Source of the DNA: a virus | IMG/VR virus record: IMGVR_UViG_3300039098_000024 | Location: 1 to 59,501 of that record | Strand: one strand, 5' to 3' | DNA: 59,501 nucleotides | In this document: positions 16,765 through 49,305 of the stretch, in pieces | Position numbering within the stretch: the stretch's first letter is position 1 | How the letters are laid out: each line of letters opens with the position of its first letter | The notes under the pieces: model-generated | Database searches by the model: none | Seen by the model: only the letters and a program-made list of their open reading frames with translations | Told to the model about the DNA's origin: nothing | Position numbers and translations under genes: made by a program

Positions 16765-16789
16765 ACTGACGTAACAATATAAGAGAAAT

Positions 16790-16820
16790 AAAACCTACCG
16801 ACGATAGGTAGGTTTTATTT
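16790..16820 (+). terminator. Rho-independent terminator after the capsid gene
   Basis: AAACCTACC-gacgata-GGTAGGTTT followed by TTTTATTT. Confidence 0.85.
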
Positions 16821-16958
16821 ATGGAAGGGACCGTTCGAGGTTAAGTAGGTTTGATACCTACCTGTTCCACAATTAAGAGTCGCTCAATAGCACTGGCGTG
16901 TATTGAGCTTGACTTTAAAAATCGCCAGCCTCCGCGTTATAGAGGCAAGGAGGAAGTT

Positions 16959-17717: not shown

Positions 17718-17727
17718 GGAGGCATGT

Positions 17728-20700: not shown

Positions 20701-20745
20701 AACGGTATTACGATAAAATACGAGAGAGGGGAGGAGGTTAGATAA
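17728..20745 (+). CDS. Large tail/nozzle-like structural protein (1005 aa)
   Basis: SD AAGGAGG. In the T7-like order it follows the adaptor. Confidence 0.6.
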   Translation: MITLKRAPKMPYSTKDIKNYSKHMHQMNFKGIVHSDNIFEVEQESFKDTNNVFVNEDMMLVSRAPIVGEQLPVSYILDGSQTIETSIVPDGYSLVDIYETGKVVVYISINDTDQFTIVAREKATGLLTIMTELVTEYHVAAIEKYLIVFNDVDARVIDTNSYSTGWQLLRDLAHIPITKRVVGQETFENPANLFTESYKEQYIWSEDILPVLPDGDAEVVITKSPDDLTWQLPNANINTEFRLLDRLNCYVSPTDLVSVATNDTLGITMMAVGRSDHVIISYDAGQTFERVLYPTHNGFLQIASISDDGLHYFFVAVDGVFRYDLGLKTWDLLREGDLPASTAPQLEGTGIVSGRQNTAKFINAEVFTFVLYREDVGVPITRVYWRGPGLQTKGYVPGTLGYTEITASINPLIQINKTRQDISPFSVTISGDDTNSVVTAWLSATTATSTYMVNMFSTSLDTYDYTVATVVDFENLSGTYVDGETVYITETGTYYIHNGTIWIGADPILVEQTLDNAYGIIVNATRSTQLVHPDTGFAIDAIELECITDNNGIWVSARALIGRQYNTPDWLTFNEFQYGLAIGSVVDTNGAPLFLETGHINNMTTLTVDGIANLPSTLDDNEDWPDPYSRDATVTNGKYYYMIIGTKIFTNDVSSKIVTITYTRESATPYTNIPDVTHVNNELYLGFGNTLSITNNFSTGTDIQFNLPIINDQGFTSNINGLINISTTEVAVFLIDDIIISTKVADDLLGYRYDYLTTRLSNGIRQGDTVINTKDGGYTLYPTSKGLAVMNYQADVATTDQVVEYVTDNIVSLWREFYKINAIKIIQMNDYIFLTNSTKDYLMLDLRTMSWWKFSSPVNVSKLLTDQTNLYIVNNGLYKFNEDYITYRDLSTEFIDWKIESQLLHFSAPAHYKNIKQLIYQLKESNVKEQTILSQIKLYRKVISTREPDTVGFVVDGYRPFVKRFNYWKINQLQWGMAADPETKVPARLQLNGITIKYERGEEVR

Positions 20746-21449
20746 TGAGTAATGGATTTTTTGTTCCTAATTCAATTAGTGGTAACTATGTGTCTAACAA
20801 AAAGACATCTACCGGTGCTATTCAATATGATACAGCGCAAAGCGAAATAGGACTATCAAAACAGGCGGCGTTACAGTCAATAAACAAACAGTACTCGCCG
20901 ACAATAGACAAAGCATACAGCGGTTACTTAGCAGCTAACCGAAATATTCAAGGCTCTCAAATGGGTCAAGGTTATAAGAGTGCATACATTAAAGCATCTA
21001 CTGAAAACTTACAATCAAATGTAGCAAATGCTAAACTTACAGCAGCTAATGCACGAGCAGATATTAATGCTAGTGCTGGTAAAGCTACTAGTGCTCTTGG
21101 TGACACATTCGCATCAGAAGTATATAATATGGACAGAGTAAAAACTACAATGGAAGGCTACTTATCATATGTTAAAAATGTAAGTGGCATCTCAGATCCT
21201 ACTAAAACATTCTTGACAGACGCACAACGAAATCAAGAAGTAGATACTTTGTATGATACATTGTTTGATGCTAGTGGTCAACTGACTGATTACTATGACA
21301 GTAGGGGCGAGCAAGCTAAAGGCTATGCTGAATGGGTTAAGTCTGAAATGGGTGATAATGTAGCAGACAGAGAATGGTCACAATGGCTATTCGGATCTGG
21401 TGGGTTACAACAATTTAGAAAAGCAGTTACGAAAGGTATAAAGTCATAA
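20745..21449 (+). CDS. Internal virion protein (putative, 234 aa)
   Basis: ATGA-type overlap with the preceding gene, SD GGGGAGGAGG. Ala/Ser/Gln-rich. Confidence 0.6.
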   Translation: MSNGFFVPNSISGNYVSNKKTSTGAIQYDTAQSEIGLSKQAALQSINKQYSPTIDKAYSGYLAANRNIQGSQMGQGYKSAYIKASTENLQSNVANAKLTAANARADINASAGKATSALGDTFASEVYNMDRVKTTMEGYLSYVKNVSGISDPTKTFLTDAQRNQEVDTLYDTLFDASGQLTDYYDSRGEQAKGYAEWVKSEMGDNVADREWSQWLFGSGGLQQFRKAVTKGIKS

Positions 21450-21491
21450 CATAATAACTCGAGGTGTAGAGCCCGAGTAAAGGAGAGACAT

Positions 21492-27400: not shown

Positions 27401-29702
27401 TAATGGTGAAGTATTCTTTAAGAACAATGCCAACACTTTAATGGACATGACTACTGCAGAAGCTGAGGCAACAGCTAAGTGGTTTATGGATGCTAATATG
27501 ACTGGTATTGCTGGTGATAGCACAGAGACTCAAACCTTTGCAGCAGTTAAGATGTACTTCTTAGGTTATGTATTGTCTGAGATAAAAGATGGTGGTCAAT
27601 TCTATAAGTTTAACGCGAACGTTAAGAGTAGAATTAATAATAACCTTAAAGGACAAGTAACCGCCGCAGGTACTGCACTATCAGTATGGAAGAACTTAAA
27701 GACTTTCATTAACCCGATAGAAGCTATGAAAGCAGCCGACATGGAAATAGCAGGAGTGTTACTTACAGCTGACGAGAAAAACATATTGTTAGATGCAGCT
27801 AAGAAAGGTAACATGGAAGACATAGCGAAAGCACAAGCGACTATTATAAACAGAGTTAACCAAGAGAAGACAAGTAAGAAAGGTATATTGCGTAAGATAA
27901 CTATGTTACGATCTATGTCAATGTTGACTGGACCACCTACGTGGTTACGTAACAAAATATCAAACTTTATGCTTAAGCGACTAAACAAAATATCTAGCAA
28001 AATAGGTGACAAAGTCTTCACTGAGAAATCAGTAGCCGGACAGTTTAAAATGAATGGTAAAGTTACTACTGAAATTCAGGACTACATAGACAAACACTTT
28101 ATCGACAATAAACTGTTCGATACCATTGTAAGTAATCTGTCTAAGTATAATCCTAGCGATATTCAAAGGCGTTTTAAAGATGCTACAGGTGTTGCTAATA
28201 AAGATGCATTATTTGCTAACATGGTTATTAAGTCAATGTACAACCAATACTATAACCAAAGTATGTTCGACAATAAAATTGTTAATAAGTATCACCAATT
28301 CTTAATGAAAGTATTGTCAGATAATAACTACGTGCGTGAAGCAGCTATTAGGTACTTCGGTAAAATAATGGCAGAGCGTGGTTATTCATTACAAGGAGAC
28401 GTAGTAAGTGACGATATAATGAGTGACTTTGCAACGGCTATTGGTATGGGTATGAAAGACTATATGCACTCAGACAATAAATTCAACGAGTTTGAAACAA
28501 TGTTGGCTGGAGTTAACGAAGAGTTATTATTTGCATATAAGCTGATATTACCTTTTGGAGCAGCTCAATGGAATTGGTTTAAAGCTGCTGTAACATATAG
28601 TCCATTAGGACTAATGAACAGTATACGTAGACTAACCAAGTTAGAAGCCCAAATAACGAAAGCAGAAACTAAGTGGGCAGAAGGTACTGCACAAGTACCG
28701 CCAGAAATGACCGAGTACTTAATTAGACGTGACGTAGGGTCAGGTGTGATAGGAACGATGGCAGTACTCTTTGGAATGTTGTTAGCAGCAACTGGTAAGA
28801 TAGCCTTAGACGACGACGATTACGGAACACCTAAATTACGAATAGGTAGTGTAGACTTTGATGTCGCTACTATATTCGGCTCTAGTTCAGTACTAGCCGG
28901 TGCAGCACTAATTAAAGGCTGGGGAGAAAATGGTAAGTTAGTAGAAGGCTTAGACGCAATGGCTGGTCCATTGTTAGACGGGTTCTTCCTGACTCAGATA
29001 TTAGAGCTAGACCAATATAACAATGGCGGCTGGGTATCATGGGGTATTGGTTATGGTGAACAAACAATGTTATCATTCATACCTAATGGTTTAAGATGGC
29101 TGTCAGGTGCAAGTGCTACTGGTTCATTTAAGCCAGACAATGTATTTGAAAGAGCAGTAGCTAGATTACCATTCTTAGGTAGTGCCTTTGGTGTCAATAA
29201 GAAAGTTAATCCATATACTGGAGACGAAGGTGACTTATGGGATGCGTTCAATAGAATAGTACCTTTTGTAGAAGTACGAAATATAAGTAGTCTTGAAGAG
29301 AAGTCTAGAGCGCTTGGTATCAATAAAGATCAGTTACGTGGCAAGTACACAATCAATGGTGAAGCATTTGATTTAACAGCTACTCAGACTGCTGAACTCA
29401 ATAGACAATATGGTAATTGGAATGCTATTGCATTAACTGAGTTCTATAATAGTTCGTCAATGCATAGAGTATTGACTGAGCATGATACTTTTGCAACACT
29501 TAGGTATTCTCAAATGACTGAAGAACAACGAGCACGAACTGTTGGAAGTATAATGACTAAGAACAGTACATACGCTAAGATACAAGCATGGTTGAAAGAT
29601 GGTAATAAATACTATGCAAGTGATAGCGAATATGCTACTCTAAAGAAGTTAGGTATCACTGGTTTATTATATAATGGATCACAAGGCTTTGTAGCCAAAT
29701 AG
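21492..29702 (+). CDS. Giant internal virion/ejection polyvalent protein (2736 aa) with a zincin HExxH motif
   Basis: One uninterrupted 8.2-kb ORF with SD AAAGGAGAG. Hydrophobic segments near residue ~300 and near the C-terminus. NVVMHEVTHATQF metalloprotease motif. A possible ART-like VMYRG...FLTSS stretch follows. Confidence 0.75.
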   Translation: MATVNRTRPTATEASDIRAQRGTGQLESVNSYLKNTDPTSYFYKKFKSENNEFLRDDFWSEAATRGESQDMASLLEASKDKGFSREAVDIVSGYEGRADYDSYMLALQTPHLDNTTKKERLGDNDYSFGEYTDQEWATEILKRTTARWDAEIVQADKDRRNWFTKTGAQVVSQVGNFTGAILNFTGDVYNLEEGLFNMLFNWSGDANAGDRFLHAFDNDDKFSGNPWAKVGDWLTKATFEFQKNYANGVDAVDAFDEGYRLGDGPNWIAQIANSSGEGTGTNWWGTVSNGISQAIGYMVPTIALAYFTGGASTTGTAISAGARSALFYSGIFSGMVKDSVTTASLNGVSYKDLNAGKVVAQAGLKAAAQYAVEKGLGMLIGFTAIDRGIGTAGSDIASEAATKAAASLATKTGWRAGAAVAARFTKEALKEGLEETFQELSDSFIDEAFDGRFGVDVTIQELVDAFVIGALTSYTMGLAGNVKTFLPGTIKTNKKTGEVVSNRGVTIDKKGKTAFMGAFQTMNLNESMRLMNDHMGVINDNKSSIEKKAKSMFSMNAAMAILGDVYATMGTERSAKADAMVSKMVASNNKKTQLKALNTNTKYSNELWQNLYKVQSGANIAHVKTLEKKVKDAIKKRSKLLKSKQVTKLDNIVTTTTKLDETNSDLEADTYAVLQEMLTKTDIKVLVGVDGATVASSDDVAFVNNKLIKSGDIPTIIKGLAYDKSVKAVEANLTPRQSKLVLHSYNKITGTNGTINQAITALLFDKQFYGYMLLKTSEAKYKTSGDKAAAINILMKIDQLITGKLSPYVAAGTVGLDQKAYMTLLKKVQENMRSGLVTFATQYAFVDVGAIDNAILPKELKDAINAHRNVIFTKLINKITSDKSNKVPNAERIAMFDKELDKHKSDSDLTSQKIKALKENARSTDYLRRLDAGISLNFYAKRSGSYKEKTTFLETDPFNASALNAIAHVENVFGVGFDDLINGTFSPLDINPEINKSVYALDNYQDRLAAIREVLFNSSAKAYTLGYDGKLLEVLDKDTFIQDKYLGDQQKFKNDFKAKQKAGKDFTLQDISKIDLAADTKTKFLSETKVIIKPGALKAGTNNHYDEDTNTIILRGTDINNVVMHEVTHATQFSLMGYDNDSVVYGGAPAMFDILPDDVQADLTDYIKTNLPLSYELLKDPDGKNYYFAYFMLAGEIEANSSLTAFMFETGFRWKDDRQTLVSPNDNNRTWPMAPDATKEAARDKGNLQKKAKQYQKAQDTPLVREKQKALKNKKSVQTFMKDGFLQTKSGVPLVMYRGAGQEGAQQHEGHIFLTSSPQIASAYAGGTSASTNSYVGWISNLQKDDVYVIDGKGKSFDDLRFKGMALSTDNAVKWVQENTTKKAVLIKNVVEADYIETKPAHDLIIFDTAYDTMKRVTMEDNGKFIKNWTDKLNRNDFEQYNGRRVDSEQFYNYVTALSTSATNVAEDAAIPTTGRYINNKVASTSNLKYRIRKGIQIQVNDNVANFIVATTKDFAKLPKVLKDSIKSGKTTYYDISKYVATTKSMNDYTFKAIAKYFYNNEQLAKTTYSAMRSLLSNIEELSTLSYMVPAEYQHKQITPANMTKLLIKTLSDADTDTTIAKSYTKYMKRSQTVMIKTDAGKVAFIDNQHADAKQLNTAVFLHYDGTLRGMRSINAIGKYMSFKQNDIYNKDTNWVQGIRTATTDYEQDIDISEMLDTVTRQEKLNTINNYVANALIAKVEKLPIAERKVKGPKVMAELRRIMSKMAGYDETTINKRYLAALSNENAKTQPIENIVKPLSEQPRSTKNLKDHIRERASRVTERIGGLKRRYNKMPDSIKAVIDPKTYKLTKTYQSMSDQDLLSLLVDMKETAKQLSSIIGEQELRQQKVRIEKARLDRVAKRETTTKTDKRSLREKLKYVHTTKVINQTFEFESRDAITKSATEMLNTQWGKQRMSTVKGVSNNRQQNVHNGEVFFKNNANTLMDMTTAEAEATAKWFMDANMTGIAGDSTETQTFAAVKMYFLGYVLSEIKDGGQFYKFNANVKSRINNNLKGQVTAAGTALSVWKNLKTFINPIEAMKAADMEIAGVLLTADEKNILLDAAKKGNMEDIAKAQATIINRVNQEKTSKKGILRKITMLRSMSMLTGPPTWLRNKISNFMLKRLNKISSKIGDKVFTEKSVAGQFKMNGKVTTEIQDYIDKHFIDNKLFDTIVSNLSKYNPSDIQRRFKDATGVANKDALFANMVIKSMYNQYYNQSMFDNKIVNKYHQFLMKVLSDNNYVREAAIRYFGKIMAERGYSLQGDVVSDDIMSDFATAIGMGMKDYMHSDNKFNEFETMLAGVNEELLFAYKLILPFGAAQWNWFKAAVTYSPLGLMNSIRRLTKLEAQITKAETKWAEGTAQVPPEMTEYLIRRDVGSGVIGTMAVLFGMLLAATGKIALDDDDYGTPKLRIGSVDFDVATIFGSSSVLAGAALIKGWGENGKLVEGLDAMAGPLLDGFFLTQILELDQYNNGGWVSWGIGYGEQTMLSFIPNGLRWLSGASATGSFKPDNVFERAVARLPFLGSAFGVNKKVNPYTGDEGDLWDAFNRIVPFVEVRNISSLEEKSRALGINKDQLRGKYTINGEAFDLTATQTAELNRQYGNWNAIALTEFYNSSSMHRVLTEHDTFATLRYSQMTEEQRARTVGSIMTKNSTYAKIQAWLKDGNKYYASDSEYATLKKLGITGLLYNGSQGFVAK

Positions 29703-29708
29703 TAGGAA

Positions 29709-29731
29709 GGACACCAACCGGTGTCCTTTTT
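29709..29731 (+). terminator. Rho-independent terminator ending the late arm
   Basis: GGACACC-aacc-GGTGTCC followed by TTTTT. Confidence 0.9.
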
Positions 29732-29756
29732 CATATCATTCAATTTAATTGAAAGA

Positions 29757-29793
29757 ATATCATAGAAGCAAACTGTCGCGTCTTCTATGATAT
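29757..29793. repeat. 12-bp perfect inverted repeat ATATCATAGAAG/CTTCTATGATAT with a 13-nt spacer
   Basis: Read directly; lies in the convergence gap between the two arms. Confidence 0.9.
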
Positions 29794-29895
29794 ATCTGTG
29801 GCGAATTATATAGTCCCGTGATTAATTATAAGAAAGATTAATTTGATCCCATATATTATCCTAAAAGGATCCATAGTCTATATATTGAGAGCATG

Positions 29896-29926
29896 AAAAA
29901 AGAGGTTATTACACCTCTTTCTTTTT
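29896..29926. terminator. Bidirectional terminator (A-run, AGAGGT-tattac-ACCTCT, T-run)
   Basis: The hairpin lies just downstream of the minus-strand stop at 29925-29927. Confidence 0.8.
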
Positions 29927-30167
29927 AGTCTATAGTATACATCTGATTTCTAACCATTGCCAGGTGGATCCATCTGATTTCAGCAACGTCGCCATGAATT
30001 TCGATGTTTTCATTGGTAATAGGTACACGTATCACTAACCAATCGTCGTTCTTAGAAAGCAAAGTAATAGAACGCCTTATACCTAATTGTTTATTCTGTA
30101 ACCATTTCAAGCATTGCTCTTTAGAGTTAAACTCTTGCGGCATTAATCTTCCCATATCAGCTAACAT
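29925..30167 (-). CDS. Hypothetical protein (80 aa)
   Basis: ORF with SD AAGGAGGTG upstream; last gene of the minus arm. Confidence 0.65.
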   Translation of the reverse strand: MLADMGRLMPQEFNSKEQCLKWLQNKQLGIRRSITLLSKNDDWLVIRVPITNENIEIHGDVAEIRWIHLAMVRNQMYTID

Positions 30168-30184
30168 ATTGCACCTCCTTTAAT

Positions 30185-30430
30185 TTATCGTGACTTTAAT
30201 CTTTCTTCTGACACTTCATATAAGTATGCGTCTATTGACCATGTTATAGCACCAACTAAGATACTAATTCCACCTGCGATATTTATAGCTGGTGGTATGT
30301 TGCTAAGTATCTCAATAATACTTCGGTCTTCTGCAGCATATACTATGAACCAACCTAGGTATATGACAGTAGTCGTCGTAGATATTATTTGCATTACTTT
30401 ATTAAAGCCTACTAATACTTTCTTTATCAT
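30185..30430 (-). CDS. Small two-pass membrane protein (81 aa)
   Basis: ATGA overlap with the polymerase stop; two hydrophobic segments. Confidence 0.65.
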   Translation of the reverse strand: MIKKVLVGFNKVMQIISTTTTVIYLGWFIVYAAEDRSIIEILSNIPPAINIAGGISILVGAITWSIDAYLYEVSEERLKSR

Positions 30431-32544
30431 AAGTTAAACTCCTTCGTATACGCTAGTTTGCCATCTTTTAATTTGTACCAATGACGGTCTAGTGCATTAC
30501 TTAATTTCTCAGTGTAGTAGTTAAAGTCTAGTTTAGCCGACGAGCCATCTATGTGTGTCAATCGTCTATCGTGGTATGGACCTTCTATCTTGTAGTTGTA
30601 TAAAGCATCGTTAACAATCCAAGTGTGTGGTGGGCAATTGGCAACTGTGTTCTCTTGATGTAAATACCATTTGTTGTTCTCAAACTTAAGTTTCTTACCA
30701 GCTGCTCTATGTGCTGCTAACAATATATCAACTGTCTTGCCAGCTCGTATTTGAGTCGCAGTAGGTTTAATTTCACTCCACTTCAATTTCTTAATTGAAC
30801 CATATTTAGTATTGTCACTAGCAACTACTCTACTCACTTTACCAAGTTCTAAGTCACCGCCAACATTTCGTTGTACTGAAGTATAGAAGCTAGGACCTTT
30901 AGTAGCTGTAAGACAGAAGTCTGCTACCTTAGTGTGCTCTAACAAATATTTAACTGGGTTAGTCTTATTTATATAGAACTCGTTTTGTGCTTTATTTATA
31001 ACATGTAGTCCAAGTGGTCTTATTCTGTTAGTACCTGGTTGGAACACTGTATTTATGAATGCTCCACCTTTAAGTGTTACTTTGTCTTTAATGTCTATAG
31101 CTAGATAATTGTTAACATTCGCTTGCCATATCTTTTTCTCTTCGTCAACTTCAAAAGTGAATTTAGATATACGCTCGAAGTTCTGTACTACTCTAATTAG
31201 TGCATCATATTTATCTTTAGAACCATAAACAATAATACCATCTGTATTACTTTGTATGATTTGAAGACCAAGTTCTTTGTATATATTGTTAGCTAGTGAT
31301 ATAAGTATCATTTGCCCAATGCGACATATTTTTGATCTCATATAGTCGTCGTATAATGCTAACCACTTATTACCTGCTGCACCGAACGTAGTGTTCATAA
31401 CCAGCTTTGCAGATGGTACGAATTCAAACTCTTCAGTTGTCCAAGTTGATTTAGGCTTCTGCTTCAATCCTAATCTAGTACTATAGAACTTAACGAAACG
31501 TTGTGGTTTAGTTATACCTCTCGGCATTGCATTACAGAATATCATTGTAGCTGGGTAACATGAAGATGCATCAACGTGCCACATACCATGTGACTCAGTA
31601 GCTTCTACATATATACAACTATTTGATCTACCTACTTTTGGAGTAGTAATAATTGAGTGTAAACCACCATCAGCAGTATAAACTCTATTACCAAATATAG
31701 TCATGTTCTTAGCTTGCTGTGAAGTAAGTATATGATGGTATAACTCATTAGGTATCCACTTCTCAAAGTACTCACGTAACTCTTTTTGATATATCGTAAT
31801 TGTCGGGTCAACGATTGTAGTACCGGGGTACTTCTCAGCACCTAGCACTATACCTGCCAATACTGCATTCGTAGATTGGTATGCTATGCGTTCTGCAATA
31901 TCATATTGTTTACATAATGATACCTTAGTATCAATATACGGTTTAGATACAGTAATGTAATAAGCGTGTAGTGCATATACGTCGTGTCGACAATAAAACA
32001 TTATCTGCGCTTTCTCGTCAGCCGTTAAAGTCTTTTGTCCGAACGGAACTGTAGTCTCTCTAATGTCTAAACCTAACGAAGCTTCATGATCTTTCAAACC
32101 TTTATTGTTAGTGTCGTCCATTAAGTCTTGATATGCTTCACCTGTAAACTTACGTCTAATATAGTTTGCAATTCTATAACCGTCTGGGTACTCTCTCAAG
32201 AATGCATTATACTTGTCAGGGTTCTTACGGTGTATAACTAAGTTAGATGCAATGTATACTTCTAGAGCTGTAAAGCCTGCCAATATACAATTAAGAATAA
32301 TTTGGTCATATCGTTTGTTGTTAAACCCTGTCAATACACCACTAGACATATCACGTTTAAGTCTCATTAAACCTTCACGACCTTGGTCACTCGTATACTC
32401 ACGCATCTTAGCTTTAATTCTAAGTTCTTCAGCTTTATTTAATTTGTTGTTATGTGGTGACGAGTCATAGCTGTCTTCTTGGTCACTTGCTATTATTCCC
32501 CAAAAACTAGGGTACGACTCAATGTCAAAAAACTTTAATCTCAT
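30427..32544 (-). CDS. Family B DNA polymerase with 3'-5' exonuclease (705 aa)
   Basis: Exo I FFDIES, Exo II GFNNKRYD, Exo III YCRHDVYA. Pol motif A DASSCYPAT, motif B KLVMNTTFGAAG, motif C SNTDGI. Confidence 0.8.
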   Translation of the reverse strand: MRLKFFDIESYPSFWGIIASDQEDSYDSSPHNNKLNKAEELRIKAKMREYTSDQGREGLMRLKRDMSSGVLTGFNNKRYDQIILNCILAGFTALEVYIASNLVIHRKNPDKYNAFLREYPDGYRIANYIRRKFTGEAYQDLMDDTNNKGLKDHEASLGLDIRETTVPFGQKTLTADEKAQIMFYCRHDVYALHAYYITVSKPYIDTKVSLCKQYDIAERIAYQSTNAVLAGIVLGAEKYPGTTIVDPTITIYQKELREYFEKWIPNELYHHILTSQQAKNMTIFGNRVYTADGGLHSIITTPKVGRSNSCIYVEATESHGMWHVDASSCYPATMIFCNAMPRGITKPQRFVKFYSTRLGLKQKPKSTWTTEEFEFVPSAKLVMNTTFGAAGNKWLALYDDYMRSKICRIGQMILISLANNIYKELGLQIIQSNTDGIIVYGSKDKYDALIRVVQNFERISKFTFEVDEEKKIWQANVNNYLAIDIKDKVTLKGGAFINTVFQPGTNRIRPLGLHVINKAQNEFYINKTNPVKYLLEHTKVADFCLTATKGPSFYTSVQRNVGGDLELGKVSRVVASDNTKYGSIKKLKWSEIKPTATQIRAGKTVDILLAAHRAAGKKLKFENNKWYLHQENTVANCPPHTWIVNDALYNYKIEGPYHDRRLTHIDGSSAKLDFNYYTEKLSNALDRHWYKLKDGKLAYTKEFNL

Positions 32545-32702
32545 TTCACATTACCTCTCCAGTCGTCAACTCCAAAATATCTTTCTAGCTTGTGGAGTTT
32601 CTTACTAAGCCGCGTCATTCTAGCCCACTTAATATTATCTATAAAACTTAAGCCGTCTTTCTTCATTTGCTTCTCTACTTTCTTCCAATCTACATGTTTC
32701 AT
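32541..32702 (-). CDS. Small basic protein (53 aa)
   Basis: SD AGGAGG then ATG at 32702. Its stop overlaps the polymerase start (ATGA). Below the ORF-track cutoff. Confidence 0.55.
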   Translation of the reverse strand: MKHVDWKKVEKQMKKDGLSFIDNIKWARMTRLSKKLHKLERYFGVDDWRGNVK

Positions 32703-32711
32703 AATTACCTC

Positions 32712-34775
32712 CTAAGTAAATGTGCTTGATGCTAGCGATTGACTGAATGGGCAATAGTCCTCGTCTAACAATGATTTGATTACTATTTGATCATTTAAAG
32801 CAATATCAAAATGAGTTGTCAATTTGTATTCTTTAACTATATGTTGAACGAAGTTACCATAGTTGAATGGATGGTAGCCCATCATTTGTGTCCATGTTTT
32901 GTATTCTACAAATAAGCTGGTAAGTCCTCTGTTCACTAATCTCTTAACCGTGATATATTGTAATTGACACCACTTGTTAATTGAGCTTTGCTCTACTTTG
33001 AAACGCTGCTTAAGTTTCTCTTCGCTTTCTTCCATTACGAACTTACCTGACTTTAATACTCCATGCATAGCTTCAACTGATTTGCATAAGAAGTACTCCA
33101 TATCTAAGTCAGTAATCTTACTATCGAAGTTTCTATCAGGCTCCTTAATTTTGTTGTTAAGTTCTACTAGCATTAGTCTACGATATAGACCTTCTGAGTC
33201 GTCATGTATTTTAACCATAGAGTTTGCACAAACAATAACTGTTGCCATACATTCTAGTAAGATAGGCTCTGAGTATATAGCTCTAACAAGTACTGGTTGT
33301 CCTGCAACAATAGATTTGAACCTACCTGCATCTCTAAGTACTTTTTCACTACTAGCATCGTCGTCTATGTTAACCATAGCACCAGTCAATGTTGATAGGT
33401 GATAGTCTTGATCAAACTGGCTAAGCCCTACTGTCGATACATACCTAGGGTTAAACATTTTTCTAATCAGGTTAGTGTATGTGGACTTTCCAGTACCACC
33501 ACCACCTACTAGTACGAAGAACTTATGAAAGTTATTTCTACGTATTAAGCAATAACCGGCTAGTTCATATAGTTGTTGCATAACCTTTGCGTCACCTTTA
33601 GATATAAACTTCATAAACTCGTTTATACGTTCTGAGAACTGACAATTTGGGTTATATGGAATATCAACCTTAACAGTATTATAACTGTTTGGTGTTGGCT
33701 CAATTAGCTTTAAGTTAAGTAGATCTAAGTAGCCGTTCTTTACTGATATACAAGCATACTCTTTGTCTAGTAGTTTAGGGTTGATCTGCTTCTCAACGCA
33801 TACAAATTCTATTATCTCTTTACGTTGTTGTTTAGTAGCATGTTCAAAACCTTCTTTGTGTACTAGCTCGTGCACTTGGTGAGGTGTTAGCTTTACATAT
33901 ATACCTTCTTTGAATTGGTATACATAATCACCAACAGCTATCAGTCCGTGGTCAGCTATTAACTTACGAGCTATCTCTAACCAGACAGGCTTCTTAGCCT
34001 TACCAGTGCCGTCTTGTGCTTCCATGTTGCCATAGGTCTTTTCAACTGGACGAGCTACTGTAGCGTTGAACATTTCCTCGGTCATTGGGTCTTCCCAAAT
34101 TTCCCAGTTAATGATACGTAAACATTCAATTGACTCTTCTTCTGTTACTAAGTTAGGTCCAGTGTGTGCACCACGTAGTTTGAATAGAGCTTCATTACCA
34201 GAACCATCTGGCATATCGATAAAGCTTACGTCTGTGTCTCTAGCTTGTCTAAGTGGTCTTAACCAGAATGGCAAGTCGTCTATTTCTAGATCGTCCCACT
34301 TATACCATTCTCTGTTTGACTTCTCGTCATTAGCAGGAAGTATGATATAACCTTTCTTATCACCTCGACCATCAGTTCCAATACCTATATGATTTATGCG
34401 TCCTTGGAACTCACTTTTACCAGCCATTATAGGTGATACATTACCAAATATGAAGTGCATACCTTTCTTACTTTTATTAGCTACGTATTTAACACTATGA
34501 TTGTCTAACAACTTTTCAATAACTTCACTACTTCTAGCGTGGTCTTTGTTATCAATGTCTATAGCGATATAACCTTTAGGTACAATCCAACCTAGTCTAC
34601 CACCACGACTCAGCCAGTTCTTAGCTTGAGCAATGTTAAGTGGGTCTTTTAACGAATTAAGAGGTGCCTTGTTCTTTTTTCTTATGGCTTCGTCGTAGGC
34701 TTCTTCTTCATTATAGTTTATTATTTTTACAAAGCCAGCTTTAGGGAAGGCTTCACAAAATTTATTAAAGTCCAT
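32712..34775 (-). CDS. Primase-polymerase / D5-like SF3 helicase (687 aa)
   Basis: N-terminal prim-pol-like YIAIDIDNKD and GMHFIF. Walker A VLVGGGGTGKST. Walker B-like MVNIDDD. Confidence 0.75.
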   Translation of the reverse strand: MDFNKFCEAFPKAGFVKIINYNEEEAYDEAIRKKNKAPLNSLKDPLNIAQAKNWLSRGGRLGWIVPKGYIAIDIDNKDHARSSEVIEKLLDNHSVKYVANKSKKGMHFIFGNVSPIMAGKSEFQGRINHIGIGTDGRGDKKGYIILPANDEKSNREWYKWDDLEIDDLPFWLRPLRQARDTDVSFIDMPDGSGNEALFKLRGAHTGPNLVTEEESIECLRIINWEIWEDPMTEEMFNATVARPVEKTYGNMEAQDGTGKAKKPVWLEIARKLIADHGLIAVGDYVYQFKEGIYVKLTPHQVHELVHKEGFEHATKQQRKEIIEFVCVEKQINPKLLDKEYACISVKNGYLDLLNLKLIEPTPNSYNTVKVDIPYNPNCQFSERINEFMKFISKGDAKVMQQLYELAGYCLIRRNNFHKFFVLVGGGGTGKSTYTNLIRKMFNPRYVSTVGLSQFDQDYHLSTLTGAMVNIDDDASSEKVLRDAGRFKSIVAGQPVLVRAIYSEPILLECMATVIVCANSMVKIHDDSEGLYRRLMLVELNNKIKEPDRNFDSKITDLDMEYFLCKSVEAMHGVLKSGKFVMEESEEKLKQRFKVEQSSINKWCQLQYITVKRLVNRGLTSLFVEYKTWTQMMGYHPFNYGNFVQHIVKEYKLTTHFDIALNDQIVIKSLLDEDYCPFSQSLASSTFT

Positions 34776-34785
34776 CGGTACCTCC

Positions 34786-36147
34786 TTATGCGTGTTTAAT
34801 TGACATTAATGCGTCGTGTATGTTTTGTTTGCCAACTAAGGCTTTCCAAATCTTACCTTCAACAATATATTTATCACCTGTTGTGTTAACTAATACTGAT
34901 AACTTACAAGGCTTGTCTTGTCCACGTCTCCAAGTCCTATGTATAAATTGTTTATAGTATATGAAGCTGTGGTCTATTGAGTAGTAAACAATGTTTTGAC
35001 ATAATTGTAAGTTAACTGAATTGCCACGTGCACATTGCAATACTAATGCGTTGTAGTTACCAGTCTTAAACTTAAGTATGTCGTTAGTCCAAGTTAAGTT
35101 AGCTTTAGTAAGTGCTGTTTGTATATTATCACCATCTATTTGAAATCTATAACCTACTATCGTTTTCTCTCGCTTACACTCATTTACTATAAATGGTAAT
35201 TTAGGGTTAACGAAGTTAGGTATTATATATGTTTGTCTGACCATGTCGTCGTCATAATAGTATAAAAAGCCATTAAGCGCTTGTTGTGCTTTTTGCATTG
35301 CAATTGCTTTCATTGTAGTAGACTCGTGTCCACCTAATTTTAATATACCTTGAAGTGCATTCTCATACTCTTTAGTTGACTCAACTTTAAATGTAGTCAG
35401 TGCCATTGGAGTTACGTCCATTGCTGGCATATCGTCGTCGTCGTCATACGGCCAGAACATTACTGATTTTAAGTAAACATCCATAAGCAACTTCTCACCA
35501 CGTTCGTTAAGTGACACAGGCTTCATAAAGCTTCCGTACGGTGTTCTTTGTAGTTCCATATTACAAAATATTTTCTTAAACTCGGCCGTTCTTATTCTAC
35601 CCATTCCACCTACGTTAAGGTTGTGCAATACTGCCCAAGGTTCTATATTGTTATTACCACTTATAGTACCTGTCATACCCCATACGTATTCTGCTTTCGC
35701 GGTTAATGAATATACTACTTTAGCAAACTTAGATTTCTTTCTAGTAACTCCAGACCTTAGCGATTGACATTCGTCTATAACAATGATGTCCCACTTAGTT
35801 GCTACTAGAGCTTCTTTAACTTTGCCAATAGCTGTACCACTTGTAACAAAGTATGTTTGCTTAGGTAATACTCCTTGTGGCATTATGTCTGCTTTCCACA
35901 TTGCTTTAATTGCAACTGCAGCTGACATAATCAATACTTTAATAGGTCTGCCTTTTAGTTTCTCTACTTCTCTAATAGCATGTATGATAGGGTATGATTT
36001 ACCCTTGCCGGGTTCAAATGCTAATACAGCATGTTTTTCTGTTAACAATAATTGTTCTGCAAATTCCTGCTCAGGAAGGCGGTATATCTCATTGTACTCA
36101 TTATAAGTAATACCACCTGCTTTCTTAGTAACTGGTACCATCGTCAT
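34786..36147 (-). CDS. SNF2-family (SF2) helicase (453 aa)
   Basis: EPGKGKS (motif I), VIDECQSL (DExQ), HRTWRRGQ (motif VI). Confidence 0.75.
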   Translation of the reverse strand: MTMVPVTKKAGGITYNEYNEIYRLPEQEFAEQLLLTEKHAVLAFEPGKGKSYPIIHAIREVEKLKGRPIKVLIMSAAVAIKAMWKADIMPQGVLPKQTYFVTSGTAIGKVKEALVATKWDIIVIDECQSLRSGVTRKKSKFAKVVYSLTAKAEYVWGMTGTISGNNNIEPWAVLHNLNVGGMGRIRTAEFKKIFCNMELQRTPYGSFMKPVSLNERGEKLLMDVYLKSVMFWPYDDDDDMPAMDVTPMALTTFKVESTKEYENALQGILKLGGHESTTMKAIAMQKAQQALNGFLYYYDDDMVRQTYIIPNFVNPKLPFIVNECKREKTIVGYRFQIDGDNIQTALTKANLTWTNDILKFKTGNYNALVLQCARGNSVNLQLCQNIVYYSIDHSFIYYKQFIHRTWRRGQDKPCKLSVLVNTTGDKYIVEGKIWKALVGKQNIHDALMSIKHA

Positions 36148-44611: not shown

Positions 44612-45080
44612 TACAGTCACCTCTTACTTCGTTATATTTAGCTAGTAAGTATTCTAGCTTAGGGTTAAGACTGACTTTAGCCATTGCCTTAAGCACCAAT
44701 ACTGGGTTCTGAGCAACAGCATCAATCATTTCGTTTTCAATCTTTTGCAATTTACGCTTTCTTTCTCTAGCAGCTTTCTCTATTCTAGCTTGTTCTTTCC
44801 TTTCAGCTTCAAGACGTTCTTGTTGCTCAGTGTACTCGTCCATATCAACCTTAGCAATAACTCTTCTGTGTGGAATGATGCCACAATGTTGTCTAGTCTC
44901 AGCCAGCGAATACACTTGGTATACTTTTGCTAACTCTGGACCATACTGTGTATCAGTAACTACTAAGTCACCTTTCTTTAAACCTTTAATGTCTGTGCTA
45001 AAGTAATAACCTCCGCTGCTAAAACCTTTTACGCATTTCTGTTTATACTTTACTACTACTATTCTATCTGCTCTTTTCAT
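44604..45080 (-). CDS. Paralogous domain plus charged coiled-coil tail (158 aa)
   Basis: N-terminal similarity to 44363-44611. The C-terminal half includes EQQERLEAERKEQARIEKAARERKRKLQKIE. Confidence 0.65.
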   Translation of the reverse strand: MKRADRIVVVKYKQKCVKGFSSGGYYFSTDIKGLKKGDLVVTDTQYGPELAKVYQVYSLAETRQHCGIIPHRRVIAKVDMDEYTEQQERLEAERKEQARIEKAARERKRKLQKIENEMIDAVAQNPVLVLKAMAKVSLNPKLEYLLAKYNEVRGDCND

Positions 45081-45096
45081 GTTCTTTACCTTCCTT

Positions 45097-45696
45097 TTAT
45101 TTTATTTGTTCTGCTTCGTCCCATCTTGATAATGTATTGTGTCTTTCTATACCTGCCCATAACTTAGCTAATATTGTATTAACCGCGTCTGGCATCTTAT
45201 CGCCCATTGTAGCTACGTCGTACTCAAAAGTTGAGAACATACTCATTACTTGACTGAACAAATATCGCAACTGTTTATGATGCTCGATCGCTATCGGGTT
45301 GTCATCACCTCGTGCTAACATTAGTTCTTCTGAGTTTGTGCTATTACAATAAACAATAACGATACGATTTACCCATCCAATCCAGTAAGTGAATAACTCA
45401 CCTAGATTTAACAAAGGGTCGTGCTCGTCAAACGTTCTGTAAATGATGTCACTAATAGGTCCTCTGTCACATACGTACACAGTACTATCGTCTTTTACCA
45501 TTTCATTCAACTGTTCGATAAGTTGTATTGGTGTTAGTCTACTTGGATGCTTTGGGTGTGTTGGTATCAGTGCTTCACCGTCCGCAACAACTTTAATGTT
45601 CTTTAAACCTTTTAGTTGCTCTAGTCTAGCTACCACTGCTTTTATTAATGTTGACTTTCCACTACCGTCAACTCCCTCTACCATTATTACACTCAT
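45097..45696 (-). CDS. Thymidylate kinase-family dNMP kinase (199 aa)
   Basis: P-loop VEGVDGSGKST and CDRGPISDIIY (DR...S..Y) motif. Confidence 0.7.
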   Translation of the reverse strand: MSVIMVEGVDGSGKSTLIKAVVARLEQLKGLKNIKVVADGEALIPTHPKHPSRLTPIQLIEQLNEMVKDDSTVYVCDRGPISDIIYRTFDEHDPLLNLGELFTYWIGWVNRIVIVYCNSTNSEELMLARGDDNPIAIEHHKQLRYLFSQVMSMFSTFEYDVATMGDKMPDAVNTILAKLWAGIERHNTLSRWDEAEQIK

Positions 45697-46442
45697 ATTA
45701 GTTTCTCCTTTTTATAGTTTACTTTCTTTCCATACAGGTTGCTTGCGCCTATCTGTATAATGTCACAACATTCGTAATACTCTGCAGTATTCCATTTAGG
45801 TTTATGTGGAGTTACAAATCTTATGTTTCTACCACCGCCATTATGTATAATACTTTTTAGGCATTTCTCACAAGGTTCTAAGTCCATCAACCAAGTCTCT
45901 CGTTCAACCTCTATAAGCTCTACAGACTTAACATACTCTACTAAAGTTTGTTCAGCATGAAACTTATCAGCATAGCCATCTAACAATTGATTACACGTAT
46001 ATGCTATAGGTGATAATGTCGTTGGTCTGAATGCATGATTTCCTCTACCTACTAATGCTGCCGTCTTAATGTCGTCTTGTGAGTACTTAGCAACCTTCTT
46101 AAGTATAGAATACGCTTTCTTTATACTAATATACTTAGGCTCTGGTAAACCAAACCCTATGTCCATTAGTGGTACAAATACTACTTTGAATTGGTTTCCG
46201 TTTGCTGCTTCAACTAAACTCTTACGAACTCGTTCAGGTAGCATACTACTTTGTAGCGTCAACACTATAACCATATGCTCCATGTTTTCGTAGTCGTCAA
46301 TCATATGTCCTACAACATTACTATTGTATTTGATAACCTTGTCTTCGTCTATAACTTCTAAACCTCTGCCTTTATTAAAGTGATTGTTACAATTATAGAT
46401 TGCCCACATTACTTGTTCTGCTTGCGTCCATCTTTTACTCAT
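45693..46442 (-). CDS. Cytidine/dCMP deaminase-fold protein with an unknown ~120-aa N-terminal domain (249 aa)
   Basis: Zinc motif H-A-E (KFHAEQT) followed about 25 aa later by P-C-x-x-C (EPCEKC). Confidence 0.65.
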   Translation of the reverse strand: MSKRWTQAEQVMWAIYNCNNHFNKGRGLEVIDEDKVIKYNSNVVGHMIDDYENMEHMVIVLTLQSSMLPERVRKSLVEAANGNQFKVVFVPLMDIGFGLPEPKYISIKKAYSILKKVAKYSQDDIKTAALVGRGNHAFRPTTLSPIAYTCNQLLDGYADKFHAEQTLVEYVKSVELIEVERETWLMDLEPCEKCLKSIIHNGGGRNIRFVTPHKPKWNTAEYYECCDIIQIGASNLYGKKVNYKKEKLI

Positions 46443-47259
46443 TCCCGTAGTCCCTCCTCTTGTGAGCTTTCTGCCATTTTAATAATTTACGATATATGGT
46501 CATTGATATGTAACCACGCGCATTTATTATCTGGTCTATTTCTCTAGGTGAGAATACATGTCTTAAGTCTTTAATAATATCAGCCTTCAATTCTTCAAAG
46601 TCTGACTCTTTATGATAAGGGTCAACCGTACCTACTAAATCGATTATCTTTAATTCGTCAGTACCGTCTTTATTTCCCCCAGTGTGTTGCTCAAACGATA
46701 CTACTGCTGGGTGATTTATAGTAAGTCTATTTGTCATAAATCTGTAGTCTAACTTAATGTCATTCTCTGCAGCTTTAGATACGTATGATAAGTTACCCAT
46801 ATATACATGACCTTTACTGTAGCACTTCATTATAGTATAATACACCGAGCTTCTGCAGTCCTCAAACGGTTTCTTATACTTGAGTGATAACTTGTGAGAT
46901 AGTTTCTTGATCCAGTTGTCTTTTGTGTCCATCCACTCTTTGACTGGTGGGTTCCTAAACATTTTACTATGCTCGTCTTCCGCTAAACTTTCTAACCATT
47001 GTAAAAATGTATTTTGTATAGTACACAAAGGAATTACCTTTCTTTTATTAGTTAAGTATTCCTCACTAATTGTGTATAGGTTTAACACACGTGTCCATGT
47101 ATCAAACTGACTCTTTATACTCTTGAATAGATACCCGATAACAACTTCGCCTTTCAGCTTCTTAGACAATGATATGTCTGTCCACGTCGTAGGGCTATTA
47201 GTAGTTGTTAGTATCTCTTGAACAATATGAAACTGCTCTGGCTTTCTACTATGTATCAT
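46435..47259 (-). CDS. Hypothetical protein (274 aa), possible transcription factor
   Basis: Long ORF with ATGAGTAA overlap. No confident motif. Confidence 0.65.
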   Translation of the reverse strand: MIHSRKPEQFHIVQEILTTTNSPTTWTDISLSKKLKGEVVIGYLFKSIKSQFDTWTRVLNLYTISEEYLTNKRKVIPLCTIQNTFLQWLESLAEDEHSKMFRNPPVKEWMDTKDNWIKKLSHKLSLKYKKPFEDCRSSVYYTIMKCYSKGHVYMGNLSYVSKAAENDIKLDYRFMTNRLTINHPAVVSFEQHTGGNKDGTDELKIIDLVGTVDPYHKESDFEELKADIIKDLRHVFSPREIDQIINARGYISMTIYRKLLKWQKAHKRRDYGNE

Positions 47260-47287
47260 AGTCTCTCCTATTACAGCTAGTCGCCGT

Positions 47288-47533
47288 TTATAATTTGCTT
47301 TGCTTGTTGTGTTCTGTTATGTATGTCTCGTCGTCTATCAGCTTCTTTAAGTGAGGTAACTGATTGTCTAACTTGCCTTCTACAAACAATGTAATCAATG
47401 CTCGTAGTAATGCAGATTGTTGACCTCTCTTATCTACTTCTAATAGTTTAAGGTGCATCTGTGCTTTTAATAGCTTTGGAAAATAGAAGTTCCACTTTTC
47501 TTTAGCACTTGCAGCCGTTACCTTTCTTGGCAT
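47288..47533 (-). CDS. Ribbon-helix-helix (Arc/CopG-like) DNA-binding protein (81 aa)
   Basis: KWNFYFPKLLKAQMHLKLLEV..RGQQSALLRALITLF fits a beta-strand/helix/turn/helix pattern. Confidence 0.5.
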   Translation of the reverse strand: MPRKVTAASAKEKWNFYFPKLLKAQMHLKLLEVDKRGQQSALLRALITLFVEGKLDNQLPHLKKLIDDETYITEHNKQSKL

Positions 47534-47628
47534 ATTACTCCTCCTAATTGTAGCTATATGTCCTATTTTAATAGAGCAAAAAAATAGCCGTAAAGACTAT
47601 TTTTTTTATTCTATTATTTGCTAGTTTA

Positions 47629-48345
47629 CTATTCTGCGTCTTGTGCCATAAAAGCTGCTAGTAAATCTTGAGCGTGACTAATTTTCTTAGCTGTACGCTT
47701 AAGTGTTCTTGCTTCTTTTTGTTCGTCAGTTAATTTCGCACGAACTGCTTTCGGAGCATTAGCTTTAGCTTCTACAGATATAGCTAATAGTTCGTTGTAT
47801 CTGTCGTACTGAGTTTCGTCAAATACTTCTAACCAGTTACTAGGACCAGTAGCCATAGTAATCGATCTGCCTTCTTGAAGAGCAGTGATGTATTCTTGAA
47901 GTTGTTCTGGGTTCATGTCTTCAGGTTTAATTTTCTTGCTTCCTGCTTTTAGTTCTTTGTAAGTAGCTACTGCTGTTTCTACTAACTCAGTGTACTCAGC
48001 TGCTTCTGCTTCGTTAAGATATTTAACGATGCCAGCTTTAACACCACTAGCTCCTAAAATTCTAGGTGCACTTGTTTTAACTTCTACTTCTACAAAACCT
48101 TCTTCATTTACTGAAGTGTTGAATAGTTGTTCACTGAAGTATTTTCTGTTACAGATGTTACCTTTTGGTAGAATGATCCAAGGTTTGCCATCAGGGTTAG
48201 CTTCATTAGCTTTAGACTTTTCAATCCAAACATGTAGAAGTTCTGCCTCAGCGCCTTCTTCAGCTACGAATAGGTATTTGCCAAGTTCTTTTACGTTTTC
48301 TTCCGTTGCAGTGTATTCTGCGTTTACATAAATTCTTGCGTTCAT
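47629..48345 (-). CDS. Hypothetical acidic protein (238 aa), co-oriented with and directly downstream of the RNA island
   Basis: SD GGAGG, intact ORF, followed by an A-run/hairpin/T-run at about 47575-47610. Confidence 0.7.
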   Translation of the reverse strand: MNARIYVNAEYTATEENVKELGKYLFVAEEGAEAELLHVWIEKSKANEANPDGKPWIILPKGNICNRKYFSEQLFNTSVNEEGFVEVEVKTSAPRILGASGVKAGIVKYLNEAEAAEYTELVETAVATYKELKAGSKKIKPEDMNPEQLQEYITALQEGRSITMATGPSNWLEVFDETQYDRYNELLAISVEAKANAPKAVRAKLTDEQKEARTLKRTAKKISHAQDLLAAFMAQDAE

Positions 48346-48433
48346 TTTAGTACCTCCATGTACTGTTGCCCTTTCAGGTATCTACAGGGTAATTTACCTT
48401 ATTGTAACCAACGTCTAGCGGACGAGTTGGTAT

Positions 48434-48528
48434 TGGCGGGTAAGGCAGGGTTCGAACCTACGACCTCTTACTTGACGGAGTGTATACCGTTCTTACCGTA
48501 AGTGCTCTTCCAACTGAGCTACTTCCCC
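48434..48528 (-). tRNA. tRNA-like gene (95 nt, encoded CCA) with 26 nt between the anticodon-stem strands
   Basis: Acceptor GGGGAAG/CTTACCC (one G-A mismatch). D-arm GCTC-AGTTGGAA-GAGC. Stem CTTAC...GTAAG encloses GGTAAGAACGGTATACACTCCGTCAA. Variable loop AGGTC. T-arm GTAGG-TTCGAAC-CCTGC. Confidence 0.55.
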
Positions 48529-48861
48529 ACGATTGTCCGCTGTGCTCATAGGTATAAACAACAGACAAAATGCCTTTCAAGTTTATTGCTAGAAACTTGA
48601 ACGCGACTAATCTACACTAGCATGCGGTGGTTGACAGTACATAATATACATGTCTTACAAGCGGGCACGTTACCCTAACCACTTTCTTAACCCGTAAAGC
48701 AGATCGAGCTATAAGCCTCTCTTCTACTATTTGGCTGCGACTTTCCTAACTAAATAGGGGCGCTTTGCATTTAAACTATCACATACCTATACCGAGATAG
48801 TACCCTCTTTACGGTCAACCTTTACTCATAAAAGTTGCCTACACTCTATTGCTAGAGCGAT
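48529..48861 (-). ncRNA. Candidate structured non-coding RNA of unknown class (333 nt) between the tmRNA and the tRNA-like gene
   Basis: No ORF of 60 aa or more on either strand. A 7-bp helix capped by a GCAA tetraloop (48842-48859). A 9-bp hairpin TTCAAGTTT/AAACTTGAA (48576-48601). Short RNase P-like strings. Confidence 0.4.
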
Positions 48862-49176
48862 TGGTGGACCTGACGGGGATTGAACCCGTGTCCAGCCACG
48901 ACCTATTAACTAATCTTTATTACACTCATTTTGCGTTTCTAACTTCCACCAGATAGTTTACTTGAACCATCAAAGCCAGTAGTTTATGCATACTACCAAA
49001 CGTTCTTCGTCTCTTACGCGAATGCTCTTACTGAAGGGGTAAAAGCGTCACGGACTGCTCCAAGCAGACTGTTGATTATGTTTTTTGCATTTATTTGTTG
49101 TGATACTTTTAGAGCAATGTATCATTGCTGAGTGAATTAGTTAACGGTTTGCAACTGTCGAAACCAATGCAAGCCC
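48862..49176 (-). ncRNA. ssrA: tmRNA (transfer-messenger RNA), 315 nt
   Basis: 5' GGGCUUGCAUUGGUUUCGACAG and 3' GGACACGGGUUCAAUCCCCGUCAGGUCCACCA match the conserved tmRNA ends. Acceptor stem has G3:U70. Internal tag frame GCA...UAA at 49088-49014. Confidence 0.85.
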
Positions 49177-49305
49177 ATATTGGAAGAAACTCAAACTTAT
49201 ATTTTTTCATAAGTATATTATTTCTTCCGATATTATATTATATACGGAAACGGTCGGAATATTTCACTATTTTTATACCTTTTTTAACTTAACGTTTATT
49301 TGAGA

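Follow-up and report, generated by a model that had tools for sequence, protein, structure and literature searches.

We report that the 333 nt separating a tmRNA gene from a tRNA-like gene in an uncultivated tailed phage appear to encode a structured RNA, here called X, with a conserved multi-hairpin 3' domain whose base pairing has been kept beyond chance between the two sequences in which it is found. X lies on the minus strand of a ~59.5-kb contig (the window, 59,501 nt; IMG/VR record IMGVR_UViG_3300039098_000024), and it belongs to a hypervariable island of RNA genes that forms the 5' leader of a gene for a conserved 238-aa protein. We suggest, at what we judge to be even chances, that X is an independently functional, rare phage non-coding RNA of a new, previously undescribed family. 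An earlier note on this DNA had made an observation that is now confirmed in part and had given it an interpretation that is partly supported: the structured non-coding RNA stands, while a likeness to RNase P RNA, a GNRA-capped hairpin and an 8-bp long-range pairing do not.

Results

The phage and its RNA-gene island

The window carries genes for a terminase, a primase-helicase, a DUF2800 nuclease, a ligase, a sigma factor and nucleotide metabolism, and the identical sequence is on record as ENA ERZ23495601 scaffold_90 and NCBI LGVE01185660. Neither distant blastn nor megablast detected DNA-level similarity between the window and GenBank phages, and its large terminase is at most 32% identical to that of any isolate. 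A Firmicute host for this phage group is hinted at by a Spo0A_C-domain protein (PF08769) encoded in two related phages (Table 1), taken with ribosome-binding sites of the form GGAGG and promoters of the form TTGACA/TATAAT. A single ORF of 2736 aa occupies a structural or late region of the window.

The island site spans positions 48346-49305, and the same site was identified in loci L003-L023, L034-L036 and L069. X fills exactly the space between two RNA genes of its own orientation, as the earlier note had it, and ARAGORN and Rfam agree on both neighbours. A motif search of the window for the promoter gave three overlapping matches at two sites, with 0.05 expected, and the promoter is conserved 5' of the orthologue in relatives, whether or not they have an island. 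No terminator-like site was found on the minus strand between the promoter and the 5'UTR. With a conserved promoter upstream and no terminator in between, a single transcription unit is the simplest reading, and the tmRNA, X and the tRNA-like gene probably belong to one primary transcript, which the earlier note had likewise thought probable. The second promoter site precedes a dUTPase-like gene (40663-41049); the motif probably defines a phage-specific promoter class, and the phage encodes a sigma factor of its own. In 50-nt folds across six island variants, a stable hairpin lies 0-7 nt 5' of 8 of the 11 tRNA-like or tmRNA genes, and the terminal hairpin F of X is the leader hairpin of the window's tRNA-like gene.

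Table 1. Features of the window (47629-49270 in order along the minus strand), of L014, which carries the homologue of X, and of related loci
Feature	Sequence	Position	Strand	Basis or remark
Phage promoter motif ATAGTGA-N-TATAATATAATA	window	~49231..49270	-	motif search; conserved upstream of orthologous gene
Leader hairpin, ending 7 nt upstream of tmRNA 5' end	window	49184..49226	-	fold of upstream 50 nt
Phage tmRNA, tag AKNIINSLLGAVRDAFTPSVRAFA	window	48862..49176	-	ARAGORN; Rfam RF00023, 86.5 bits, full length
X, 333-nt non-coding RNA	window	48529..48861	-	ORF-free, Rfam-negative, strand-specific fold, L014 homologue
Variable 5' third of X, with GCAA hairpin (48842-48859)	window	48741..48861	-	poorly alignable with L014
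Conserved 3' domain of X, ~210 nt, from CAGCCAA (48731-48737)	window	48529..48740	-	RNAalifold consensus
Hairpin A, invariant loop core GCUUAUA ("CR-V-like" string)	window	48698..48728	-	2 double and 2 single compensations
Helix B, outer helix	window	48655..48697	-	1 double and 2 single changes
Inner hairpin of B, GGG-UAACGUG-CCC (the earlier note's GGGUAACG)	window	48663-48675	-	2 double changes, loop invariant
Possible pseudoknot helix GUGGUU (48677-48682)/AACCAC (48627-48632)	window	48627..48682	-	crosses helix B
Hairpin C, variable length	window	48634..48653	-	1 double change; 6-nt deletion in L014 loop
Hairpin D / invariant AUGCUAGUG	window	48612..48626	-	consensus fold
Hairpin E (the earlier note's 9-bp hairpin), invariant loop CUAGCAAU	window	48577..48600	-	3 consecutive doubly compensated pairs
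Hairpin F, invariant 11-bp stem whose end is 4 nt from tRNA-like gene	window	48533..48568	-	consensus, leader folds; includes AGCGGAC (48535-48541)
tRNA-like gene, encoded CCA	window	48434/7..48528	-	Rfam tRNA, 48 bits; ARAGORN "Leu(aag)"
5'UTR hairpin, conserved loop GUCCGCU (48417-48423)	window	48407..48431	-	present in most relatives examined
Hairpin GUAC-AUGGAG-GUAC over ribosome-binding site	window	48349..48364	-	
Conserved 238-aa gene downstream of island	window	47629..48345	-	95 homologues
Second promoter copy, ATAGTGA-N-TATAATA	window	41090-41129	-	
Phage sigma factor	window	41625-42590		
ORF of 2736 aa	window	21492-29702	+	
tmRNA	L014	1899-2181		counterpart of window 48862-49176 (-)
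Homologue of X	L014	2182-2494		
tRNA-like family, other members	L014	2495-2617		
	L016	1258-1338, 1691-1785		
	L034	~229-308		
	L036	~1002-1096		
	L069	~1892-1988		
CAGCCAA, other sites	L014	2293		
	L034	7		
	L035	346		
	L036	671		
Island: tRNA-like element, unrelated ~350-nt RNA, second tRNA-like element	L016			
Island: tRNA-like element and tRNA-Asp	L034			
Island: RNA of no known kind and tRNA	L035			
Island: ~400-nt RNA of no known kind and tRNA-like element	L036			
Island: single tRNA-like element	L069			
Spo0A_C-domain protein	L019	5920-6408		
	L020	3289-3777		

X is non-coding and matches no known family

On neither strand is X overlapped by an ORF longer than 40 aa, which bears out the statement of the earlier note that there is none of 60 aa or more; the longest are of 21-40 aa, and most of them overlap the flanking RNA genes. 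The earlier note had also raised a small conserved coding frame as the alternative, and this was looked for and not found; given ORFs of at most 40 aa and indels of 1, 2, 11 and 19 columns between X and its homologue, we reject the reading of X as a small protein-coding gene. The minus strand of X folds at -95.8 kcal/mol (z = -2.54, with none of 100 shuffles as good) and the plus strand, its reverse complement, no better than shuffles (z = -0.16), so that the folding signal is strand-specific, as expected for an RNA. The G+C content of X, 0.42, is higher than that of most of the genome (about 0.33-0.43, mostly near 0.37).

None of the 4227 families of Rfam 15 covers X at gathering score, and none could be assigned in a permissive search of 1 kb (48300-49300, E<=10, permissive filters), in which the sub-threshold matches over X were to eukaryotic lncRNA or miRNA models with E of about 1-10. 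X was unmatched by the models for GOLLD, ROOL, HEARO and other large RNAs, the threshold being reached only by the tmRNA and tRNA, and the same searches, at gathering score and at E<=10, of L014, L016 and L034-L036 returned nothing for X. The earlier note had been unable to assign a class, and the Rfam search it proposed gave X no family. Two specific candidates were also rejected. A second or permuted tmRNA is not supported by the permuted-tmRNA model (15.2 bits, E=1.1, against a gathering score of 47), whose match overlaps the T-arm of the real tmRNA; no T-arm or acceptor lies within X. A group I intron is likewise rejected, as X lies between two complete RNA genes and has no Intron_gpI match at E<=10.

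A conserved multi-hairpin domain

The homologue of X is carried by L014, a 7.8-kb scaffold from the same sample as the window, whose flanking protein is 64% identical to that of the window and whose gene order (tmRNA, X, tRNA-like gene) is the same; L015, from a second sample, is identical to L014. Covariation is thus pairwise, between two distinct sequences, and the structure is partly derived from that same pair. The 3' ~210 nt of X retain seven to eight helices in L014, and this domain has a z of -2.2 by itself. In the 5' third, L014 has different hairpins, and the 7-bp hairpin with a GCAA tetraloop to which the earlier note had drawn attention, present as described in the window, is deleted.

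In the RNAalifold consensus a GCC/GGC closing helix encloses hairpins A, B (outer and inner), C, D and E, and hairpin F follows. Of its 58 pairs, 9 are doubly compensated, 9 are changed on a single side and still paired, and none is broken; when the 3' partners were slid by 1-3 columns as a control, 0-2 double changes and 33-42% pairing were obtained. Because RNAalifold favours pairs that fit both sequences, it was re-run on 200 column-shuffled alignments, and the consensus energy of the core, -48.2, stood far from that of the shuffles (-21.7 +/- 3.6; z = -7.3), as did the 9 double compensations, which no shuffle reached (mean 2.85, maximum 8). The inner helix of B, for instance, is GGG/CCC in the window and GAC/GUC in L014, and the perfect 9-bp hairpin reported in the earlier note at 48576-48601 is present and covaries, with three double changes. 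All six pairs of GUGGUU/AACCAC are kept in L014, one of them by a G-C to A-U double change, and this helix is a possible pseudoknot or a fold alternative to helix B. It brings the total to 9-10 doubles, so that the compensatory changes by which the earlier note had proposed to judge the RNA are found, with none broken, in one homologue. Hairpin D contains UGCUAG (48617-48622), whose complement, CUAGCA, stands invariant in the loop of E, and a D-E kissing loop could be formed; since both partners are invariant, this contact is proposed from sequence alone. Single-sequence MFE structures transfer poorly to the homologue (28 of 46 changed pairs break), and only the shared local helices can hence be trusted.

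Identity between the window and L014 is 79.5% over the tmRNA, 71.5% over the core of X, 60% over the tRNA-like gene and, in the 238-aa gene, 61% at third codon positions; the island may have passed recently from one of these phages to the other, which would inflate this conservation. Both phages have the same sequence in the loops GCUUAUA, UAACGUG and CUAGCAAU and in a 22-nt block, AAAGGCAUUUUGUCUGUUGUUU, and X thus appears to be constrained in sequence as well as in pairing.

This constraint bears on the possibility that X is a structured spacer or processing scaffold, functionless after excision, whose hairpins keep the folding of the tmRNA and of the tRNA-like element separate and offer defined entry and stop points to RNase P, RNase Z/E and exonucleases. 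Such a role would fit the leader hairpins found 5' of most tRNA-like and tmRNA genes in the islands, the freely varying 5' third of X, and the quite different intervening RNAs in the islands of relatives, as if their content were interchangeable. The best-conserved block, hairpin F, is itself a generic leader hairpin of this kind, so that it may serve processing and not an X-specific function. However, a spacer would need stems but would have no need of constant loops of 7-8 nt or of constant junctions; CUAGCAAU, UAACGUG, GCUUAUA, CAGCCAA and the 22-nt block are identical against a background of 61% at third codon positions; and 333 nt is far above the inter-element lengths of other islands (about 110 nt in L034). 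We consider the spacer reading rather unlikely.

X is not recognisable as RNase P RNA

In bacterial RNase P RNA, the regions CR-I (GGAAAGUCC) and CR-V (ACAGAA..GGCUUA) are universally conserved and pair as the long-range helix P4, and a terminal helix, P1, joins the 5' and 3' ends. The earlier note had found four strings in X reminiscent of such regions. All four are literally present, X adjoins two RNase P substrates, and X is comparable to RNase P RNA (RF00010/RF00011) in total length and in a setting where the neighbouring genes would be its substrates. The resemblance nevertheless lacks support, the strings being either unconserved or in an incompatible context. The CR-I-like GGAAAGUC is AGAAGGUC in L014, and the supposed CR-V, GGCUUAU, follows it downstream at a distance of only ~10 nt, as the loop of the covarying hairpin A. 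Neither at gathering score nor in the permissive search of 48300-49300 (E<=10) did an RNase P model match, the homologue was likewise unmatched, and no P4-type pairing is conserved between the two X sequences. The sole P1 candidate is the 8-bp complement AUAGGUAU/AUACCUAU (48783-48790/48548-48555) of the earlier note, which exists in the window, is out of register in L014 (about 4 of 8 pairs, by eye) and has as its 3' arm the loop of hairpin F. With models unmatched, strings misplaced and P4 and P1 absent, an RNase P identity is largely refuted, and a ribozyme reading, whether as RNase P RNA in reduced or rearranged form or as another processor of tRNA, seems to us extremely improbable.

The neighbouring tRNA-like elements and tmRNA

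The earlier note had called the downstream neighbour tRNA-like, and rightly so: the Rfam alignment places a 26-nt anticodon loop or insertion in it, which rules it out as a standard decoder. In L014 and L016 the homologues of this element carry different insertions. Members of this family retain the acceptor stem, D-arm, T-arm and encoded CCA, while the anticodon arm is replaced by an insertion of 26-45 nt or by a long hairpin of 9-10 bp with a 4-8-nt loop, and they are hence unable to decode. Two types of sequence are seen repeatedly among them, GGGGAAGUAGCUCAG... and GAGAGAUUAGU....

Tags of tmRNAs usually end in ...ALAA. The 24-residue tag ends in ...TPSVRAFA in both phages, being AKNIINSLLGAVRDAFTPSVRAFA in the window and AKNVITRLVNLISDALTPSVRAFA in L014, and the G3-U70 pair of the acceptor stem is kept in the phage tmRNA, as judged by eye. 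Upstream of its tmRNA, at ~1700-1860, L014 carries an extra tRNA-like T-arm (GGUAGGUUCAAUUCCUAUC) and a 10-bp leader hairpin, and its island therefore has at least one element more than that of the window.

The 238-aa gene and its leader

Homologues of the 238-aa protein are common in metagenomes (95 clusters). The protein belongs to no Pfam, PHROG or NCBIfam family and has no sequence or fold match in the PDB (AF2 pLDDT 91). The GUCCGCU hairpin upstream of its gene occurs in most relatives examined, several island-free ones among them, and is accordingly a feature of the gene, not of the island; its stems covary among phages. The second leader hairpin, GUAC-AUGGAG-GUAC, sequesters the Shine-Dalgarno sequence, and the two look like a translational operator for the gene.

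It is conceivable that X regulates the 238-aa gene in cis or in trans, with AGCGGAC pairing to the GUCCGCU loop and modulating translation or stability. AGCGGAC is the only 7-mer of X complementary to the 5'UTR in both phages, the loop is conserved in most relatives examined, and UAGCGGA occurs also within the different intervening RNA of L016. Yet AGCGGAC is buried in an 11-bp stem, a match of this kind is expected by chance in about one case in five (an estimate), and the island variants L034, L035 and L036 hold no clear complement. RNAduplex of the whole RNAs gave no usable pairing signal. The UTR motif, moreover, exists in island-free relatives and thus functions independently of X. We regard such regulation as improbable.

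Distribution of X and variability of the island

Among the contigs with flanking-protein homologues that were examined, X was found only in L014 and L015. Pattern and blastn searches of IMG/VR, JGI metagenome contigs, GTDB genomes and GenBank phages gave no homologue beyond these two, and X must accordingly be very rare; the blastn check against phages proposed in the earlier note yielded no relative among GenBank phages, with blastn or megablast. In IMG/VR, searches by way of the flanking proteins gave no relatives at first, and a profile search with the same proteins gave 11 loci, none with a tRNA, a tmRNA or X. DNA patterns, exact or gapped, were also built from X, the UTR and the tmRNA. 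Three of them had no hit in IMG/VR, and two others had 27 and 5 hits, with no covariance-model match at the pattern sites; two matches of ~12 bits elsewhere are weak and were judged to be chance, and the 5 loci of the tmRNA pattern contain no tRNA or tmRNA. The JGI metagenome contigs gave 2 chance hits, one antisense to an apparent dnaK-like chaperone gene, and the GTDB genomes 10 hits, about the chance expectation, with no model match among them. Run over all fetched loci and the other islands, covariance model R1 found no further X-like match. In both known cases (n=2) X is accompanied by a tmRNA.

The intergenic region 5' of the gene measures only ~200 nt in most relatives and consists of the promoter, the GUCCGCU 5'UTR hairpin and the RBS hairpin. 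As the site holds promoter and UTR alone in these phages, the tmRNA, X and tRNA-like gene of the window are best seen as an inserted island. Five loci (L016, L034, L035, L036 and L069) have other island contents and the remaining contigs have none. The 5' leader of the 238-aa gene is thus a hypervariable RNA-gene island, ranging from nothing beyond the ~200-nt leader to ~900 nt of tmRNA, tRNA mimics and structured RNAs. Some modules have been shuffled between phages, with blocks of 30-70 nt common to L016, L035 and L036. Three independent assemblies (L073-L075) have their ends at the island site, 127-141 nt 5' of the 238-aa gene, and these breaks are consistent with variability of the island at population level.

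A variable hotspot where some assemblies break just upstream of the gene could also be read at the level of DNA, with the hairpins acting as an origin or as a recombination or attachment site, or as decay, with X made up of tRNA or tmRNA pseudogenes; tRNA and tmRNA genes are, after all, common integration targets. The former is opposed by the strand-specific folding and by the many G-U pairs of the consensus, which would be A-C on the other strand. Against the latter, the compensatory changes speak for maintenance and not decay, and there is no tRNA or tmRNA signal inside X. We give readings of this sort very little credence.

The 7-mer CAGCCAA is present in 5 of 6 island variants and is the sole motif so shared outside the promoter, the UTR and the T-arms. 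A hairpin follows within a few nt downstream in each variant, and in L035 and L036 the motif reads AGCAGCCAA, which we take to resemble a motif of SRP RNA domain IV; SRP models did not match the CAGCCAA/AGCAGCCAA regions. Hairpins at L016 1656-1687 and L036 ~1036-1065 have an identical 8-nt loop, UUUCGUGC, on stems that are wholly different and each complementary (CUUAAG/CUUAAG and AAUAAUAG/CUAUUAUU). The same loop on different stems suggests a conserved loop-recognition motif.

Discussion

We posit that X is made as part of a transcript that runs from the promoter through the tmRNA, X, the tRNA-like element and the 5'UTR into the 238-aa gene. RNase P, cutting where the tRNA-like element begins (48528/48529), would fix the 3' end of X just after hairpin F, which would shield that end against 3' exonucleases; 3' maturation of the tmRNA would define the 5' side, and the variable 5' third may then be trimmed. 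The released ~210-nt domain would persist and act through its invariant loops (CUAGCAAU, UAACGUG and GCUUAUA) and junctions, either as a binding platform for protein or RNA or as a compact tertiary fold, with the possible D-E kissing loop and pseudoknot. Leads on its target may be the strict co-occurrence with the tmRNA (n=2) and the 7-nt complementarity of hairpin F to the GUCCGCU loop. A bolder proposal, which we put forward tentatively and are inclined to doubt, is that X founds a new class of phage ribonucleoprotein or regulatory RNA, in an island serving as a toolkit. That toolkit would comprise a tmRNA with the ...TPSVRAFA tag, tRNA mimics, X and other modules, directed at host translation, RNA-processing enzymes or tRNA-targeting defences.

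The nearest known parallel to X is in phage T4. That phage makes two small stable RNAs, of unknown roles, from its tRNA region (PMC3014915). X shares with these RNAs, RNAC and RNAD, that it is non-coding and lies on the same strand and in the same transcription unit as phage tRNA-type genes, and in both cases the RNA would presumably be freed by tRNA-processing enzymes. The likeness is one of setting. RNAC and RNAD are roughly 120-140 nt long, whereas X has 333 nt with a conserved multi-hairpin domain of ~210 nt and sits beside a tmRNA and non-canonical tRNA-like elements in the leader of a protein-coding gene. A looser parallel is offered by GOLLD and ROOL, large ornate structured RNAs of over 500 nt, which are often near tRNAs in phages and prophages. 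X resembles them in being a structured, phage-associated RNA near tRNA genes; in contrast, it does not share their sequence, has no Rfam match to either, is about half their size or less, and is known from two phages only. In tRNA-punctuated transcripts, such as mitochondrial polycistrons and MALAT1-mascRNA, tRNA-like structures mark the sites of RNase P and RNase Z cuts, which release the flanking RNA with a defined, structure-protected 3' end. The X locus may follow the same logic by analogy, although those systems are eukaryotic or organellar and X belongs to a bacterial context in which such processing is inferred. X is therefore new as a family and, as a kind, a variant of the phage RNAs embedded among tRNA-type genes.

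The surrounding island, with its tRNA mimics, its tmRNA with an unusual tag and its other RNA modules, may be the more interesting object. To our knowledge, phage tmRNAs and tRNA-like elements are poorly understood, and we know of very few phage non-coding RNAs with a known role. The X locus offers a compact candidate RNA of ~210 nt with clear helices and invariant loops, a defined context of transcription and processing, and a natural comparison at one and the same site, where relatives have no island, one tRNA mimic or other RNAs. If X proves to be only a spacer, it would show how phages build tRNA-punctuated RNA operons within an mRNA leader; if it is stable and functional, it would constitute a new RNA family and provide a handle on why phages carry tmRNAs and anticodon-less tRNA mimics.
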